Shown in pieces: positions 16,965-61,594 of a DNA stretch of 64,000 bases (positions are counted from its first letter, which is position 1; the number at the start of each line of letters is the position of its first letter). The DNA is from a virus. The notes beneath the pieces were generated by a model that saw only the letters and a list, made by a program, of their open reading frames with translations, did no database searches and was not told the DNA's origin. The stretch spans positions 32,001-96,000 of the IMG/VR virus record IMGVR_UViG_3300032046_000005, one strand, 5' to 3'. The translations under genes were made by a program, and so were the position numbers.

Positions 16965-18029
16965 TCACACATCTACATGTTTTATGTAGTTATGAGGACT
17001 TGTAGTTTCGTTTCCTGTCCAACTATACGATAACACGGGATTAGCTCCTGCTACAATTTCGTAAACTGTTTCTGGAGCTTTTCCTCCTTCATCAATTCCT
17101 ATATTTGAAATATTTTTCAAATATGTATTCGTACAAACCAATTGTTTATTTGTTGCGTGCGCTACTGTTAATGGAGCAAGTGTTTTTGTCGAATATCCTA
17201 ACAATGCTTGAGCTATGTTTGTGTCAGTTGTCATTATTCCTTTAAATGTTGCTTTAAAAGGAGGTCTTGGCGCGTCATAACTACTTCCAACAGTAAGTGA
17301 ATTTAACAACCAATTTCGAGTTTTAGGTGTTTCAATTACAATTTCTCCACTCTGTATCGATAATCCTGAAAGATATGTATGTGATATCGTTACATCTTTT
17401 GAAAGAGCTACTTTTGAAGCGATATTATAAGCTTGTCCATCCCATAATGACCATCCCCCATCTGCTCCAGAAACCGCATCATTAAAACTTGCATCGTCAA
17501 GTCCATCGTCCATATCTACTATGTCAGGCGTACTTTCCGTGCATTCTACAAACATCATTGTTGCTTCTTCAATTAATGCTCCAGGTTCAAGAATCCACTT
17601 GTAAGTTGTCAATTCTCCTCCATCAAACAAAAGATTCACATCGTTCGTTCCATCAATATAGCCGTGGTGTTCAATCCATAAATTATTATTTCTATAAGTA
17701 TCTACTGACATGTTAGCTGTTATAACATCATTACTGCCATCCCATGTAGTTGTCAATGTTTTATTCGTAAAAAGCGTTAATAATAAAAACGGATCTCTAT
17801 ACATTGTTCTTATTGTTATTCCATATTCGTCGATCTTATTATCAAATAAGATCTGTGGATCTAGTTTGTTATATAAATGAATTACTTCTTGATCATATGT
17901 CAATAAATCACATTCAAACGATTTCATTGGATTGAATGGAATATGTTTATCAGTTGCTGGAACTCCTCCTTTAAACGTGTCGTTCCATCCCCAGAATGTG
18001 TAACTTCCTACTCCTTTTATATTTCCCAT
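16965..18029 (-). CDS. major tail tube protein
   Basis: Position upstream of TAC/TMP; N-terminal FWGWNDTF..GVPA, beta-rich; no sheath gene nearby. Confidence 0.7.
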   Translation of the reverse strand: MGNIKGVGSYTFWGWNDTFKGGVPATDKHIPFNPMKSFECDLLTYDQEVIHLYNKLDPQILFDNKIDEYGITIRTMYRDPFLLLTLFTNKTLTTTWDGSNDVITANMSVDTYRNNNLWIEHHGYIDGTNDVNLLFDGGELTTYKWILEPGALIEEATMMFVECTESTPDIVDMDDGLDDASFNDAVSGADGGWSLWDGQAYNIASKVALSKDVTISHTYLSGLSIQSGEIVIETPKTRNWLLNSLTVGSSYDAPRPPFKATFKGIMTTDTNIAQALLGYSTKTLAPLTVAHATNKQLVCTNTYLKNISNIGIDEGGKAPETVYEIVAGANPVLSYSWTGNETTSPHNYIKHVDV

Positions 18030-43139: not shown

Positions 43140-45077
43140 TTATTTTTTGACTTTTTTATCAAAATCTTTTCGTTGATACATATAACTTGGACTATTTTCT
43201 ATTTGTTTTTGTAATCGTTCGCTTCGTTCTCGTAATCTATCCATCGTTTCGTTCCATTCGTCCATTCTTTCTTTAAAAAAGTTTTTGTTATGCATCATGA
43301 TTTCCATAAATCGTTGATTTTCTAACGATTCTTGTATCCAATCAATGTTATCAAAATCTTGTATTCCTTTCACTGGTTTATTTCTAACAGCTTTTTCTGG
43401 TTTGCCCGTTCTCACGGTTTTTGTTCGTTCAGGAGTGATTTTTTGATCTTCATTTACTTTTTTTTCTACTTTTTCTCCTTTTCCTTGTCCTTGTTCATTA
43501 CCTTGTCCTTGTGGTGGCAATAACAACTGTGGATTTTTCTTGAATTGTTCGAATTGCATCATAGCTTGCTCGTATTGCATGCCCATTAATTTCTTTTGAA
43601 TTTTGACCATTTTTGTTTGAACTTTTGCTTGTTCTAGTTGTTCTCGCATTAATTGTTCAGTTAATCGTTGCTGTTCGGTTTTATGCAAGTCCAAGTTCCA
43701 ACGCAATGTCACATTACCTAAGTCTGGAAAATGACACATGTTCTGCAAAATATCCATTATGTCATCCGTTATGTCCATTTGTAATGTAGACAGGTTTGAA
43801 GCCAAGTAATCTTCTTTTGAAACTAACGCACCTGCGCCTTCAAGACCCCCACCTTCCGCTCTTCCAAATAATTGGTTCTTAGGTATGATCCAAGCACTCG
43901 AAATGTCTTCTCTCAAGAATTCGAGATATGAATCAATACCTTCTCCAATCTTGCCTGCCGCATTCATGAGTTTAAAATCCATGTTCTTTCCAAATATATA
44001 GAACTTGTTTGCTCTCATTTTAGCAAATAAATCGAGATATTTCTGAGTCAATTCAGCAGAAGGATATTCTTGAGCTACAGTTGCTCCCACTAATACTGTT
44101 CCAAGTTGAGATAATGATCGTAATATGTAATAACAAGTATTTAGATAACAGATTAACGGAATCCAACACAATTCCGGTATTGCAATACCTCTCAAACCTC
44201 CTTCTACTTTTCTTGTTTCTAAAACATGAACTCTTGAATGATGTATGGTCGTTTGAGTAGGCACTCCACCAATATAATCCCATTTCGATTTGTCATAATC
44301 TAATCTTGCGTTATCAAAAATGTTCATTGGAGTCATATAATAACAACTAAACGCATCAAAATCAATTGGTCTGGTTCTAGGAGCAGATTTATCCATTCTC
44401 TCTACTCCTTTTTCTCCTCTATAATATCCAATCAAATGTCCTAATCCGGTCATTCGTTCGAAATAAACCGTATCAGTTATGTGATCCCATAAATGTGTCT
44501 GATTCATCCATTTCAAAATAGTCATTATTTCAGGAGTTTTGATTTCTTTATCAGGATCATCATAATTCACGAAAGAAAAACGATTTCTAAACGCATCCTT
44601 CGCTACTGAATAACAACCTCTATGTGCAACTCCCAATCGTTGAGTACACATTACCACGAGATGAGAAACGGGAATTCTTCCATAGTCGTAAACATAATCT
44701 CCTCCTCCTGGAGTTCCGTAAAAATCGTCAAGAGGAGTATAATAAGATTGAAAGTCTGATGTAATGCTTTCAAATTTTTCTTTAATTCCATCTCCTAACG
44801 GAATCCGGTAATCTTTTCCATAACCTTGAGGAATTCCTAAAAACTTGTAAAAATCTTTAGTTAATCCCCATTCGTCCGTTTTTTCGTTTTCTTGTTTAAG
44901 TTTGCTTTTAATAAGTGCTTCGTCTAAAACTTCAATGTAGTCTCGTGGTTTCTTGATTTCATCTGAAAAACCGTATTCTTTCGCAACTTTATCGTGTCGC
45001 TTTTTTACATCAGAAGAAGTGAATCCGCCTAGTTTAGATTGAAATCCTTTCGAACCTTTTTTACTTATACCTGTCAT
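43140..45077 (-). CDS. portal protein (DUF1073-like) with long N- and C-terminal extensions
   Basis: IHHSRV, G.AI, ISSAWIIPKNQLFG..GGL, EDY, LRWN motifs typical of DUF1073 portals. Confidence 0.85.
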   Translation of the reverse strand: MTGISKKGSKGFQSKLGGFTSSDVKKRHDKVAKEYGFSDEIKKPRDYIEVLDEALIKSKLKQENEKTDEWGLTKDFYKFLGIPQGYGKDYRIPLGDGIKEKFESITSDFQSYYTPLDDFYGTPGGGDYVYDYGRIPVSHLVVMCTQRLGVAHRGCYSVAKDAFRNRFSFVNYDDPDKEIKTPEIMTILKWMNQTHLWDHITDTVYFERMTGLGHLIGYYRGEKGVERMDKSAPRTRPIDFDAFSCYYMTPMNIFDNARLDYDKSKWDYIGGVPTQTTIHHSRVHVLETRKVEGGLRGIAIPELCWIPLICYLNTCYYILRSLSQLGTVLVGATVAQEYPSAELTQKYLDLFAKMRANKFYIFGKNMDFKLMNAAGKIGEGIDSYLEFLREDISSAWIIPKNQLFGRAEGGGLEGAGALVSKEDYLASNLSTLQMDITDDIMDILQNMCHFPDLGNVTLRWNLDLHKTEQQRLTEQLMREQLEQAKVQTKMVKIQKKLMGMQYEQAMMQFEQFKKNPQLLLPPQGQGNEQGQGKGEKVEKKVNEDQKITPERTKTVRTGKPEKAVRNKPVKGIQDFDNIDWIQESLENQRFMEIMMHNKNFFKERMDEWNETMDRLRERSERLQKQIENSPSYMYQRKDFDKKVKK

Positions 45078-46846: not shown

Positions 46847-47183
46847 GTCATAACAATATTTTTATGTTTATCTATGTATTGATTTATTGTTTTTTTTAAC
46901 TAATAATTTCATTATTTTATTGATTTTAGAATGTTCATTTTTAAATGATTTTAAAATACATGTAAAAATCATATCAATAAGTTTATATATTTTAGTTAAC
47001 TTTATATAATCATGACTTTAAAAAAGGACATTAGGAAGTGGATAATTCTAGATAATTTCACGAGACTTATTCTATGAAGATATTTAAAAATGCAATTTCA
47101 TTGTGAATCTTTACAATATGGAGCCTAACCTTAATTGAAAAGTCTAAAATTTAATTTAAAATGAGATGATATATATTAAAAAA

Positions 47184-47332
47184 GCAGAGGTGGTAGAGTG
47201 GACGAATACGCCAGACTTAAGATGTATATATCGGTTATGGGCGACACTAAGGACGAAACTCAAGTCCACCTTTAGTATCGTGAGAAATCTGGTACACAGG
47301 ACACATCGCAGGTTCAAATCCTGCCCTCTGCA
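47184..47332 (+). tRNA. trnL: tRNA-Leu(TAA) with 65-nt intron at canonical position 37/38 (47222..47286)
   Basis: Acceptor GCAGAGG/CCTCTGC, anticodon stem CCAGA/TCTGG, T-arm GCAGG TTCAAAT CCTGC, long variable region, discriminator A, no CCA; BHB central helix CTTA/TGAG with AGA and AAA bulges. Confidence 0.9.
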
Positions 47333-47342
47333 TGTTAATATT

Positions 47343-47490
47343 GGTAGAGTGTCAGAATGGTTAATGGGCTCGACTGGAAGTTTCGAATCGAAATTCTGAG
47401 AGAATCGAATTTCCGAGAACGCTATTCCCGAGAGTTGAAATCGAGTTGTCCCTTAAATGTGGATTGGAGGTTCAAGTCCTCCCTCTACCG
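47343..47490 (+). tRNA. trnS: tRNA-Ser(TGA) with 60-nt intron at non-canonical position 32/33 (47375..47434)
   Basis: Acceptor GGTAGAG/CTCTACC, stem CTCGA/TCGAG, T-arm GGAGG TTCAAGT CCTCC, long variable arm, discriminator G; helix CTCG/CGAG, inner helix GGAA/TTCC; spliced loop CT-TGA-AA. Confidence 0.85.
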
Positions 47491-47499
47491 TTTTTTTTT
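47491..47499 (+). terminator. archaeal oligo-T terminator after tRNA pair
   Basis: T9 immediately after the discriminator base. Confidence 0.6.
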
Positions 47500-47544
47500 G
47501 TTTGAACAAATAAATTCAAATATTAAATAAGATTATTAATATAT

Positions 47545-47874
47545 ATGAAAAGTCTAAAATTTACATTATTAAAAGAAAAATTAATTTCAGGAGAAAAAGA
47601 TCAAACGTTCCGATGTTTGTTTGTGCCTAATTACGATGTTGGAGAAGTAATTAACATAAAATTTCAAGATGAAATTTTGTATCAAGCAATTATAAAAGAA
47701 ATATATCCCAAACAGATAAAGGATTTGTCTTTTGAAGAAGCAAAACGAGATGGTTTTGATTCAATACAAGAAATGCAAGATAAAGTAATGGAATTGAACA
47801 AAGTAAAAAACTTGAATCGGTGGGGATTTGTAATACAATTTAAAAAAATACTTAGTATTGATACTTTTTTATGA
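47545..47874 (+). CDS. ASCH/PUA-like domain protein
   Basis: LISGEKDQTFR, VGE, LS.EEAKRDGF motifs. Confidence 0.8.
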   Translation: MKSLKFTLLKEKLISGEKDQTFRCLFVPNYDVGEVINIKFQDEILYQAIIKEIYPKQIKDLSFEEAKRDGFDSIQEMQDKVMELNKVKNLNRWGFVIQFKKILSIDTFL

Positions 47875-48049
47875 AAAACAATATATTTAAATATTATGAA
47901 TTATATATACTTATCATGATAAAAGAAAAATTATTGTTAAATTTAGCAGAATTAAATAGAGCATTGATTTTTCACAAAAACGAATTCAAGAAAAATGAAA
48001 TCAATTTCTTGAACTTGAAAAAAGAAAAAATAAAGAAGATGATAATCAA

Positions 48050-48322
48050 ATGAACGAAGAAAAAAAGCCTGGAAAAAAACCTGGATTCAAGAAAAAAGCT
48101 TCTGTTCTCTTGAACATGGAAAGAGAAGAGTTAGAAGCTCTTGATAACATGATTCAAAAACAAAACTTTGAATCATTGTATAAACTGAAAAATGACAAAG
48201 AATTTCCAACATTATCAAAAGCAAAAGCTAAGAAAAAAATTTCTGGATTGTTAATAAACAGAAACAAGCGAATCCGAAACTTAATTATAGATGAAACAAA
48301 CAAGTTTTCAGTAAAAAAATAA
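48050..48322 (+). CDS. hypothetical basic, RHH-like protein
   Basis: KPGKKPG, VLLNM..ELEALD. Confidence 0.45.
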   Translation: MNEEKKPGKKPGFKKKASVLLNMEREELEALDNMIQKQNFESLYKLKNDKEFPTLSKAKAKKKISGLLINRNKRIRNLIIDETNKFSVKK

Positions 48323-48332
48323 GGTATGAAAA

Positions 48333-48545
48333 ATGACAAACGAAAAGAAAACCATAATTACAAATCCTTTTAAAATATTGATTGACAACATGCATAAAAC
48401 CATACTTGATATTGTAAAAATATTAGAAAAAATGCCTGAAATGTTGTTAGAATCAGTTAAGAACAACAAGGATTATGTAATTGCAAGAATAAACAAGAAA
48501 ATGATCGAATATCGAAACTTAAAAAAATTCGTCAAGACATTGTGA
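48333..48545 (+). CDS. hypothetical protein
   Basis: AAGGTATGA RBS, operon ORF. Confidence 0.45.
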   Translation: MTNEKKTIITNPFKILIDNMHKTILDIVKILEKMPEMLLESVKNNKDYVIARINKKMIEYRNLKKFVKTL

Positions 48546-48847
48546 TCGATCTCATAAAATCGTTAAAAACGCTACAAATCAACGATCAAGATTTAGAAAA
48601 AAAACTAAATCAATTAAATAATTTTTTATTTTCTACTTTTGAAATCATCGATAATACGATTAAAAACGTTGATTTAAAGTTTGCAAAAACAATTCAAAAA
48701 ATCGACAATTTATTTTTTCAACTTAACATGATCGAAAATAAATATCAAAATAAAAAACAAATATTACAAAAACAAACTATTTTACAAAAAGAATTGCTTG
48801 ATTTATTAGAGAAAAGCATTCAAAAAAGAGAAAAAAAAGCTATTTAA
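48542..48847 (+). CDS. coiled-coil hypothetical protein
   Basis: Heptad pattern. Confidence 0.45.
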   Translation: MIDLIKSLKTLQINDQDLEKKLNQLNNFLFSTFEIIDNTIKNVDLKFAKTIQKIDNLFFQLNMIENKYQNKKQILQKQTILQKELLDLLEKSIQKREKKAI

Positions 48848-48850
48848 GAT

Positions 48851-49033
48851 TTAAGTAACATCAACATATCCTTCAAACTCTTCGATTTTACCAATTACTC
48901 TTGTGTGTTTTGCGTGAGTAACATTTTGAAAGTAATTGATTCGATTCAAGTTTTCAAGATCGTCAGGATCAATTTGAATGTAAACTTTACATTTATTACA
49001 AGCCACTACTCGAATTCCTTGTTTGTTTATCAT
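48851..49033 (-). CDS. small Zn-binding protein
   Basis: CNKC...HAKH. Confidence 0.5.
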   Translation of the reverse strand: MINKQGIRVVACNKCKVYIQIDPDDLENLNRINYFQNVTHAKHTRVIGKIEEFEGYVDVT

Positions 49034-49274
49034 TTTTGAACACCTACACTATTATTATTGGACATTGACACTTGTTATAATCAACCATTTTAGACTTCAA
49101 AAAACACCACACCCATTGTTTTCCATCGTGAGTACAGTGTTTTTTGGAATGTTTGCAAATTATTTCCAAAAAAATCACTTTTTTTTGTTGTTAAGTATAG
49201 TATATATAATTTGATATATAAATTTATGTTTTTTAAATCAAAACATATAAATATATCTTATTATTTAATAACAT

Positions 49275-50042
49275 GTGATACAAACAAACAAAATATACAA
49301 CATTGATTGTCAAGAAGGATTCAAACAATTGAACGATAATTCGATACATTTGATTGTTACATCTCCTCCTTACAATGTCAACAAAGAATACGAAGAAAAC
49401 CAAACATTTGATGATTGGTATGAACTAATGAAAGAAGTAATAAAAGAATCAAAACGAGTTCTCGTTTCTGGAGGAAGACTATGCATTAATGTAGCTAATA
49501 TTGCTCGAAAACCTTATATTCCTTTAAATTATTACATAATAGATATTTTACTTCAGATAAAATTTTTACTTAGAGGTATTATAATATGGGAAAAAGGAAT
49601 ATCTGGAGGAAAAAGTACAACTTGGGGATCTTGGAGATCTGCTTCTAATCCAGTTATTAGAGATGATTATGAATTTATTATTGTTTCTTGTAAAGATAAA
49701 TACAAACTTGAACCAAAAGGTATTAATTCAATTTCTTCAAAAGATTTTCTTTTTTGTTATAATGCAGTATGGCATATGAATGCAGAATCAAATCCTAATA
49801 TAAATCATCCTACTCCTTTTCCAATTAATTTACCAAAGCAATTAATAGAATTTTATACTTTTGAAAACAACATTATATTAGATCCTTTCATTGGATCAGG
49901 AACAACAGCAATTGCTGCCTTATTAACAAGAAGAAAGTTCATAGGATTCGAAAAAGAAAAAAAGTATGTTGACTTGGCAAATAAACGCATTTATCCATAC
50001 TTAGGACAACAAAAAATAACAGACTTTACCAGTCATCAATAA
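49275..50042 (+). CDS. beta-class N4-cytosine/N6-adenine DNA methyltransferase
   Basis: LIVTSPPY motif IV, HPTPFP, LDPFIGSGTT motif I. Confidence 0.92.
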   Translation: MIQTNKIYNIDCQEGFKQLNDNSIHLIVTSPPYNVNKEYEENQTFDDWYELMKEVIKESKRVLVSGGRLCINVANIARKPYIPLNYYIIDILLQIKFLLRGIIIWEKGISGGKSTTWGSWRSASNPVIRDDYEFIIVSCKDKYKLEPKGINSISSKDFLFCYNAVWHMNAESNPNINHPTPFPINLPKQLIEFYTFENNIILDPFIGSGTTAIAALLTRRKFIGFEKEKKYVDLANKRIYPYLGQQKITDFTSHQ

Positions 50043-60475: not shown

Positions 60476-61594
60476 TTAAGTAATAAAATATTTTTTTAGA
60501 ATATTATAGATTTTCGTAATTGTTTTCTTATAATTTCCATACTTATTAGAAAAGAAATGCATGGTTGTTCGCTTGTCTACATTAATATCAAGATTGTTTT
60601 CCTTGTAAACTTTTACGATTTCGCGTTCAAACGCTTTTTCTTGGTTTATCAAGATGATTTGTAGTTCAATATATTGTTTGTAAAGCAAAATTTCGCTTTC
60701 AGAATACTCCTCTTCCAAGTAAGGTAAAATTGATTCGTAATCTAACACATAAAGATCTTCCGTAGCATTCAAAAGCGTGTTTCTTATTGCAATCTTAGCC
60801 ATTCGCATCGAACCACATAATGAGTGATGATATGATTCAATTGTTGGAGGTTTGAGCTTGTAAAGTTGAGTATAATGTTCTAAGTGACAATACCAAACCG
60901 CTCCTTCGCTCCCCTTGAACATGTTCTGGTCTCCAATTCGTTCAAGTTTTGTTTCTAAGTTGTTTTGCTCGCTTTTGTAATTATCAATCAAGTTCAAATT
61001 ATTATCATATGTCTTGAATAGTACTGGAATTGAAACTGAACCGTGTTTTAAGCATGATGGTGATATGATCAATCCATTTTCTTTCAAACCAAACAACAAA
61101 CATATCTCAATGTCTTTATCATAAACAATCGTGATTGGATTCAAATATCCATATAGTTCATAACTCAAATTACAACAATTTTCAAAAGGTAAAGTTGAAA
61201 TATCAGGATGTTTTGATAGTGTTTTATATAACAACACTTGAAAATCTTCTCTTGGAAACATCGTTAATCTAGTTTTATACGATACAAAAGACTTGAAATT
61301 TTGATCTTTATAAACAAACTGCAAAATATTGGTCCCATCTAGTTTTTCCCAACTAGTTATTAAATCAATATCAGGAGGAAAATGAAAGTTTCCTTCAAAA
61401 TCGTTGGGATAATTCATCTTAGGTGTCGTGGCAATTTCTTGATTACAAAACTCACCATTAATATTTGTTATTATCAATTTTGAATAATCACCTCTATGAA
61501 TGTATCCATTTAATACGTTTTGCTTGTTATATGGATCTTGTTCGTCTTTAAACTCAATCAGATTCTTTTTTTCGATTCTCATTTTCTTTTTCAC
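60476..61594 (-). CDS. ATP-dependent RNA ligase (T4 Rnl1/Rnl2-like)
   Basis: TPKMNY, motif I EKLDGTN, TR, III YELYG, IV EGAV, V LYKLK. Confidence 0.8.
   Translation of the reverse strand: MKKKMRIEKKNLIEFKDEQDPYNKQNVLNGYIHRGDYSKLIITNINGEFCNQEIATTPKMNYPNDFEGNFHFPPDIDLITSWEKLDGTNILQFVYKDQNFKSFVSYKTRLTMFPREDFQVLLYKTLSKHPDISTLPFENCCNLSYELYGYLNPITIVYDKDIEICLLFGLKENGLIISPSCLKHGSVSIPVLFKTYDNNLNLIDNYKSEQNNLETKLERIGDQNMFKGSEGAVWYCHLEHYTQLYKLKPPTIESYHHSLCGSMRMAKIAIRNTLLNATEDLYVLDYESILPYLEEEYSESEILLYKQYIELQIILINQEKAFEREIVKVYKENNLDINVDKRTTMHFFSNKYGNYKKTITKIYNILKKYFIT

Follow-up and report, generated by a model that had tools for sequence, protein, structure and literature searches.

Two viral tRNA genes with inserts in the anticodon arm

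The DNA analyzed here (the window, 64,000 nt) comprises bases 32001–96000 of the 115.6-kb IMG/VR virus contig IMGVR_UViG_3300032046_000005, which has 29% GC and an estimated completeness of 71%. The virus is tailed, with a Phage_portal_3 portal encoded at 43140–45077. Rfam identified exactly two tRNAs in the window, and these are the sole two in the whole contig. Both are ~148 nt long owing to an insert in the anticodon arm. The first, tRNA-Leu(UAA), lies at 47184–47332 and scores 47.5 bits in Rfam; the second, tRNA-Ser, follows after a 10-nt spacer and occupies 47343–47490. Run by default, without introns, ARAGORN detected neither gene. With introns allowed (option -i), it called both at these same coordinates, as Leu(UAA) and Ser(GGA), with introns of 65 and 60 nt, respectively. 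Unless stated otherwise, coordinates are those of the window, and all tRNA, intron, half-site, hairpin and repeat features given below are on the plus strand.

The tRNA-Ser gene is of class II. Its cloverleaf scores 40.6 bits against RF00005 (cut-off 29), the variable region is long (~20 nt, 47446–47465), the discriminator (position 73) is a G at 47490, and both anticodons considered below, UGA and GGA, are Ser anticodons. The tRNA-Leu discriminator is A; each residue fits the identity of its tRNA, and CCA is encoded by neither gene. A run of nine T's directly 3′ of tRNA-Ser (47491–47499) is likely the archaeal terminator of a Leu–Ser transcript. Between 47000 and 47700, Rfam returned no family besides tRNA at E ≤ 1, and we dropped the idea that the intron harbors a box C/D or other known RNA.

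The tRNA pair lies in an accessory island

The two tRNA genes are flanked on both sides by copies of a perfect 18-nt direct repeat (23 nt at 91%). The upstream copy (47136–47153) opens a 9-codon remnant, and the downstream copy (47546–47563) overlaps the start of an ORF at 47545–47874, for which no relatives were found in IMG/VR. The bracketed tRNA-Leu/tRNA-Ser cassette measures 410 bp. A search of the 115.6-kb genome with two mismatches allowed gave no third copy of the repeat, and its restriction to these two places suggests that the tRNA pair may have arrived as an inserted cassette.

On a larger scale, the genes belong to a 3.2-kb plus-strand block (∼46850–50025) within a minus-strand block. 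Besides both tRNAs, this island contains six small ORFs and an N6_N4 DNA methyltransferase gene (49275–50042). We collected relatives of the virus by portal alignment, which gave 17 metagenome loci and one contig in a metagenome-assembled genome (MAG) labeled ‘PVC group bacterium’. The portal family thus sampled has many relatives, from sediment-type metagenomes and with 26–34% GC. In one of them (L007), homologs of ORF 50026 and ORF 46577 are directly adjacent and the island is absent; in L007 and a second relative (L010), the ORF 50026 homolog is located upstream of the portal. From this layout, the 3.2-kb block is an accessory island of this virus. No tRNA was found in any of the 18 portal-relative loci, either with Rfam or with ARAGORN allowing introns.

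The contig from the ‘PVC group bacterium’ MAG (L020, JAAEQR010000285.1) is 15 kb long, and the portal that it encodes is 54% identical; its GC content of 33% resembles that of the virus. No EndA was found in that MAG, and the contig probably comes from a relative of this archaeal virus and was binned wrongly. Searches of IMG/VR with tRNA-Ser exon and junction patterns returned nothing, or random coding matches only, and GenBank phage records gave no match by DNA or by portal protein.

Predicted splice motifs in two tRNAs and one mRNA

We scanned all cut-site pairs for BHB motifs, defined by a 4-bp central helix (H) and 3-nt bulges cut after the second nucleotide, and recorded the flanking helices on the exon side (h) and on the intron side (h′). 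For tRNA-Leu, the scan placed the 65-nt intron at 47222–47286, at the canonical 37/38 position. This is a textbook 37/38 motif, with H formed by CUUA:UGAG, bulges AGA and AAA, the 6-bp anticodon stem as outer helix (h) and an h′ of 2 bp. Since both flanking helices are present, it is hBHBh′ in the strict sense. The tRNA-Leu intron also contains a second, weaker partner for the central helix, UGGG (q=47243, h′ 2 bp).

A further candidate intron lies in a protein-coding gene. Upstream of the window, a DNA methyltransferase gene (L021:17798–19271, genome coordinates) is split by a 22-nt insert at 17900–17921. The insert shows an H of 4/4, an h′ of 5–6 bp and no h, and is thus of HBh′ type. Its removal at the BHB sites joins the frame, otherwise closed by a stop after SPPY, into one ORF of 483 aa in which SPPY is followed directly by WFLRDY. 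From this sequence evidence, the insert is probably an intron of tRNA type within a viral mRNA, in which case the virus would appear reliant on host EndA and ligase for more than its tRNAs.

The tRNA-Ser intron has the same architecture as this insert. Its sole 5′ half (47369–47379) consists of CUCG (47369–72, tRNA positions 27–30), the bulge ACU (47373–75) and GGAA (47376–79), with the cut predicted after C47374. The matching 3′ half (47425–47435) reads UUCC-CGAG-AGU, with the cut predicted after G47434. The central helix pairs CUCG with CGAG (47429–32), and the intron-side helix pairs GGAA with UUCC; all eight of these H and h′ pairs are Watson–Crick. The opposed bulges are ACU and AGU (47433–35). 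Joining 47374 to 47435 restores a normal anticodon arm, with the loop CUUGAAA closed by the 5-bp stem CUCGA:UCGAG. The scan therefore divides the gene into exon 1 (47343–47374), a predicted intron of 60 nt (47375–47434) and exon 2 (47435–47490). Of the flanking helices, h′ (4 bp) exceeds the 2-bp minimum required of at least one, and h amounts to one G–U pair only. The motif hence lacks the strict hBHBh′ form associated with EndA of the alpha4 or alpha′2 type, and we assign it to class HBh′. The normal anticodon stem competes with this 32/33 motif.

One 5′ half-site faces three 3′ half-sites

The original prediction described three tandem partners for CUCG, each followed by a purine pair and each preceded by UUC or UUCC, and the coordinates and pairings all proved correct. 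In the proximal half-site (47394–47403, UUC-UGAG-AGA), UGAG at 47397–400 is followed by AG; in the middle one (47410–47420, UUUC-CGAG-AAC), CGAG at 47414–17 is followed by AA; in the distal one, CGAG at 47429–32 is followed by AG. All three central helices are 4/4, and GGAA can pair with the preceding UUC, UUUC or UUCC over 3, 4 and 4 bp, respectively. The 60-nt intron does split into units of 28, 17 and 15 nt, as had been proposed.

Half-site quality climbs toward the distal, productive site. The proximal site is the weakest, with an h′ of only 3 bp and two G–U pairs, one in H and one in h′. The middle site has a single G–U pair, in h′, and the distal site none. Neither the proximal nor the middle site is productive: removal to 47434 is the only one that yields a 7-nt loop, which bears out an earlier claim.

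When the intron interior was shuffled by dinucleotides, 5 of 5000 sequences had at least three such sites; when random window segments were put in its place, 1 of 5000 did. The triple half-site pattern exceeds chance, though the sites are not independent. Given the second partner in tRNA-Leu, single decoy partners are not unusual; the triple set in tRNA-Ser is.

Predicted folding energies were less discriminating. Constrained folds gave −38.1 kcal/mol with the distal site paired, −37.2 with the middle site, −33.1 with the proximal site and −39.9 with an intact anticodon stem. Without constraints, the fold reaches −41.9 kcal/mol and uses the middle partner in a shifted register; on this basis the middle site could be a real cryptic site. 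Most modeled conformers fall within ∼4 kcal/mol, a spread that is not decisive, and thermodynamics do not single out the distal one.

Intron position and anticodon

Where the tRNA-Ser intron is cut determines the product: cuts from 31/32 to 33/34 yield UGA, and those from 34/35 to 38/39 yield GGA. Among 5′ cuts in 47360–47389, only p=47374 combines a 4/4 central helix with a valid mature tRNA, and only in combination with q=47434 does the 7-nt loop result. Codon use agrees with UGA, as TCA is the commonest viral Ser codon (31%) and TCC is the rarest (4%), with TCT at 27%. The neighboring Leu(UAA) likewise fits the virus, in which TTA makes up 43% of Leu codons. An intron at 32/33 and a mature UGA anticodon, both proposed earlier, are hence the best reading of motif geometry and codon use, and we regard UGA produced by 32/33 splicing as quite likely.

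The main competitor is an intron at the canonical position or directly beside it (37/38 or 38/39), giving Ser(GGA), as in the ARAGORN call with its 60-nt intron and in the Rfam alignment. At 37/38 the flanks are strong (h 6 bp, h′ 5 bp), and at 38/39 three of four central pairs form beside an h′ of 3 bp. The precursor that keeps its anticodon stem is also slightly stabler (−39.9 versus −38.1 kcal/mol), and GGA would read TCT besides TCC. Yet the central helix at 37/38 is only 2/4 (C–G, U·U, G·U, G·G), such that the bulges would merge into a 7 × 7 internal loop. Indeed, every GGA-yielding cut pair has a poor H, of 1–2/4, or of 3/4 at 38/39, whereas in both other introns of the virus the central helix is 4/4. 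The tRNA-Leu motif and the methyltransferase insert thereby act as two internal controls, and both favor the 4/4 rule. Moreover, intron placement in ARAGORN and Rfam rests on tRNA shape and takes no account of the splice motif, and TCC is the rarest Ser codon. We judge a GGA-bearing product unlikely.

A tandem duplication within the intron

The interior of the tRNA-Ser intron contains a 17-nt tandem duplication at 47385–47418. Tandem Repeats Finder reports a period of 17 with 2.0 copies and 88% matches; the copies are head-to-tail and identical at 15 of 17 positions. A genome search found this repeat nowhere else in the 115.6 kb. The third, 15-nt unit shares only an 11-mer with the other two, at 8–9 of 11 bases, so its half-site could resemble theirs through shared pairing constraints instead of common descent. 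An alternative source for the intron interior, decay of a whole anticodon-arm copy, was discarded: 12% of random genome segments and 65% of shuffles reached the same alignment score, so the similarity is not significant.

The two repeat units are predicted to pair with each other. In minimum-free-energy and constrained folds, GAAAUUC pairs with GAAUUUC in a hairpin spanning 47388–47416, and this hairpin is predicted to sequester the proximal and middle half-sites. One of the two differences between the units, A47393 versus U47410, replaces what would be a mismatch with an A–U pair and makes the hairpin perfect.

According to the original prediction, the three units are three introns (28, 17 and 15 nt) inserted successively at 32/33 and removed recursively or alternatively, with the CUCG-AC junction regenerated each time. 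The three half-sites are real, each with a 4/4 central helix and a purine pair; their arrangement is far from random; and the predicted energies of the middle and distal conformers nearly coincide. Some archaea are known to remove nested introns in a set order (PMC3728597, citing Tocchini-Valentini 2009). But the units lack 5′ halves of their own, and the sole GGAA lies in unit 1 and would be lost with the first excision. Proximal excision does regenerate the CUCG-AC junction, as was claimed, but not a usable motif for the next round: in-silico removal of 47375–47402 or 47375–47419 leaves an H of 4/4 with an h′ of 0–1 and an h of 0–1. A bare 4-bp central hairpin without flanks is not BHB-like under current classifications (rule quoted in preprint 10.64898/2026.10.13.758758), so not every unit forms a BHB-class motif, whether in the full precursor or once another unit has been removed. 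Further, the 88% identity of units 1 and 2 in tandem is a signature of slippage and indicates tandem duplication, not independent insertions. Unit-wise variation was absent among the relatives, but none of those carries the tRNA. With its single 5′ half, tandem-repeat units, self-pairing hairpin and flankless later rounds, the locus speaks against stacked introns with recursive splicing, which we consider improbable. A single intron rather than three is probably present.

Other ways to process the transcript

The tandem half-sites might instead be functional. Loop-like heptads lie at both ends of the intron, CUGGAAG at the 5′ end and GUUGAAA at the 3′ end, and the precursor might switch between two similarly stable folds and be spliced in more than one way. 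We hold this to be a long shot. If true, one gene might supply two Ser isoacceptors, UGA via 32/33 and GGA via a 37/38-type cut; in a second version, splicing would proceed through stepwise intermediates, and host EndA activity would tune the amount of usable viral tRNA-Ser.

Two nested introns are very unlikely. Here, an inner 32-nt intron (47388–47419) would leave first, and a compact 28-nt outer intron would then be cut at 47374/47434. The scan does give an inner motif at p=47387/q=47419, with H UUCG:CGAG of 4/4, an h of 3 bp and bulges AAU and AAC; a rod containing both motifs folds at −36.8 kcal/mol, near the alternatives; and nested archaeal tRNA introns are known (PMC3728597). However, the inner h′ is 0 unless the 5′ bulge is counted as 4 nt, the outer motif needs no prior removal of the inner one, comparative support is absent, and motifs this good are common by chance.

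Least probable is that the insert stays in, the gene being a decaying or non-functional tRNA copy or encoding a tRNA-shaped RNA with another role. Although the tRNA pair sits in an accessory island that the relatives lack, the cloverleaf shows no damage and its score clearly exceeds the Rfam cut-off, and a precise motif (4/4 plus 4 bp) restores a 7-nt loop. The gene also adjoins a tRNA-Leu with a canonical BHB and has a T-run downstream, its only Rfam matches (E ≤ 1) are to the tRNA family, and the 115.6-kb contig has no Ro60/TROVE gene.

Two other candidates were rejected: a group I intron, for which 60 nt is far too short and which has no Rfam match, and a Y-RNA-like arm, with no Rfam match and no TROVE domain (Ro60) in the viral genome.

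Host and splicing enzymes

The best host clue in the genome is the viral PCNA (L021:12687–13502). It is ∼60% identical to PCNAs named Hermod-, Thor-, Loki-, Prometh- and Hodarchaeota, and among the best 120 matches listed, all those with a name are from Asgard archaea or marine-sediment metagenomes. One metagenomic protein is 92% identical to it. The host is thus most likely an Asgard archaeon, as far as this protein sequence can tell, in keeping with the earlier view of a viral gene in an archaeal host. Between the PCNA gene and the gene for a 975-aa DnaG-type primase lies a GIY-YIG/NUMOD3 homing-endonuclease-like ORF (L021:13604–14887).

The 115.6-kb contig encodes neither EndA nor RtcB, and viral gene expression therefore appears to depend on the tRNA-splicing enzymes of the host. 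[quoted passage not shown] The original prediction drew the same conclusion about the host from the weak outer helix; with an h of one G–U pair only, this is reasonable, if indirect. Two EndA paralogs occur in 44 of 60 Asgard genomes (preprint 10.64898/2026.10.13.758758, 2026), and the EndA type that we ascribe to the host would follow by analogy with those other Asgard genomes. In Atabeya- and Freyarchaeia, 92–95% of tRNA genes have introns, often non-canonical ones (PMC11291895).

The genome also contains a Thg1-family tRNA-His guanylyltransferase-like gene (L022:7757–8485, E 1.8e-30) and a gene for an RlaP ‘RNA repair pathway’ nucleotidyltransferase (L022:4024–4797, E 1.8e-11). With these, the virus carries tRNA end-repair functions beside its intron-bearing tRNAs. 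A Pfam scan of 60476–61594 returned no match at E ≤ 0.001.

DISCUSSION

We favor, with moderate confidence, a single 60-nt archaeal-type intron (47375–47434) at position 32/33, of HBh′ class, whose 3′ half-site was triplicated by internal duplication. In the precursor, CUCG of the 5′ anticodon-stem strand would leave its normal partner and pair with the intronic CGAG at 47429–32. GGAA would pair with UUCC alongside, completing an HBh′ motif with a 4-bp center, bulges ACU and AGU and a 4-bp intron helix, in which the outer exon helix is missing. A host splicing endonuclease, most likely the two-subunit, broad-specificity EndA of an Asgard archaeon, would then cut after C47374 and G47434. Joining of the exons by a host ligase would give the loop CUUGAAA and the anticodon UGA rather than the GGA of ARAGORN. 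The two extra upstream partners would be by-products of the 17-nt tandem duplication, which may have placed further copies of the 3′ half-site inside the intron. Being weaker than the distal one and, by prediction, largely tied up in the inter-repeat hairpin, they would serve at most as cryptic, dead-end 3′ splice sites. The tandem repeat, its self-pairing and the gradient in site quality all point to a functional distal site accompanied by decaying or sequestered copies.

The viral tRNA-Ser intron most likely belongs to the known class of non-canonical archaeal tRNA introns. Introns with relaxed BHB motifs (HBh′ or hBH) have been described in Thermoproteales, Thaumarchaeota, Nanoarchaeota and Asgard archaea (Marck & Grosjean 2003; PMC4090602; PMC11291895). 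Like those, it has a 4-bp central helix and two 3-nt bulges that, cut after the second nucleotide, would restore a normal tRNA; it lacks one flanking helix, lies in the anticodon arm but not at 37/38, and requires a broad-specificity EndA. Unlike those, it resides in a gene encoded by a virus, its 3′ half-site occurs three times in tandem, and the apparent anticodon (GGA) differs from that predicted after splicing (UGA).

The locus also resembles the multi-intron and nested-intron pre-tRNAs of Crenarchaeota, which show ordered removal (Tocchini-Valentini et al. 2009, as cited in PMC3728597; Sugahara et al. 2007), in offering several candidate EndA sites and in that alternative precursor folds decide which motif is available. 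There, each crenarchaeal intron has both BHB halves, whether from the outset or once another intron is gone, and the introns occupy distinct positions. The viral tRNA-Ser, by contrast, has one 5′ half and three 3′ halves, and its later rounds would be flankless.

Protein-gene BHB introns of archaea, such as that in cbf5 of Crenarchaeota (PMC2738675), provide a parallel for the 22-nt HBh′ insert in the viral methyltransferase gene, the removal of which restores the frame. This insert differs from the tRNA-Ser intron in residing in an mRNA and in having a single pair of half-sites.

Among archaeal tailed viruses, HGTV-1 encodes 36 tRNAs as well as Rnl2-type ligases, for which a role in removing tRNA introns has been suggested (PMC8651126). 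As in viruses of that type, the tRNAs found here fit the virus's own codon use and are accompanied by tRNA-related enzymes (in this case Thg1-like and RlaP). The differences are that the host is Asgard-like versus haloarchaeal, and that there are only two tRNAs, both with introns of 60–65 nt.

For annotation, the tRNA-Ser gene is a case in which tRNA finders probably report the wrong anticodon, GGA in place of the likely UGA, because they position introns from the shape of the tRNA and ignore the splice motif. The same mis-annotation will recur in viruses and hosts rich in non-canonical introns. The triplicated 3′ half-site also provides a natural competition substrate for how a broad-specificity EndA picks among near-equivalent sites. 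How Asgard tRNA introns arise and grow is an open question (preprint 10.64898/2026.10.13.758758), for which this gene offers a concrete case of an archaeal tRNA intron that has seemingly grown by internal tandem duplication. For the virus itself, the picture is that of a large tailed virus with an Asgard-like PCNA, two intron-bearing tRNAs and a methyltransferase gene split by a probable intron, but with no gene for a splicing endonuclease or RtcB in its 115.6-kb contig.
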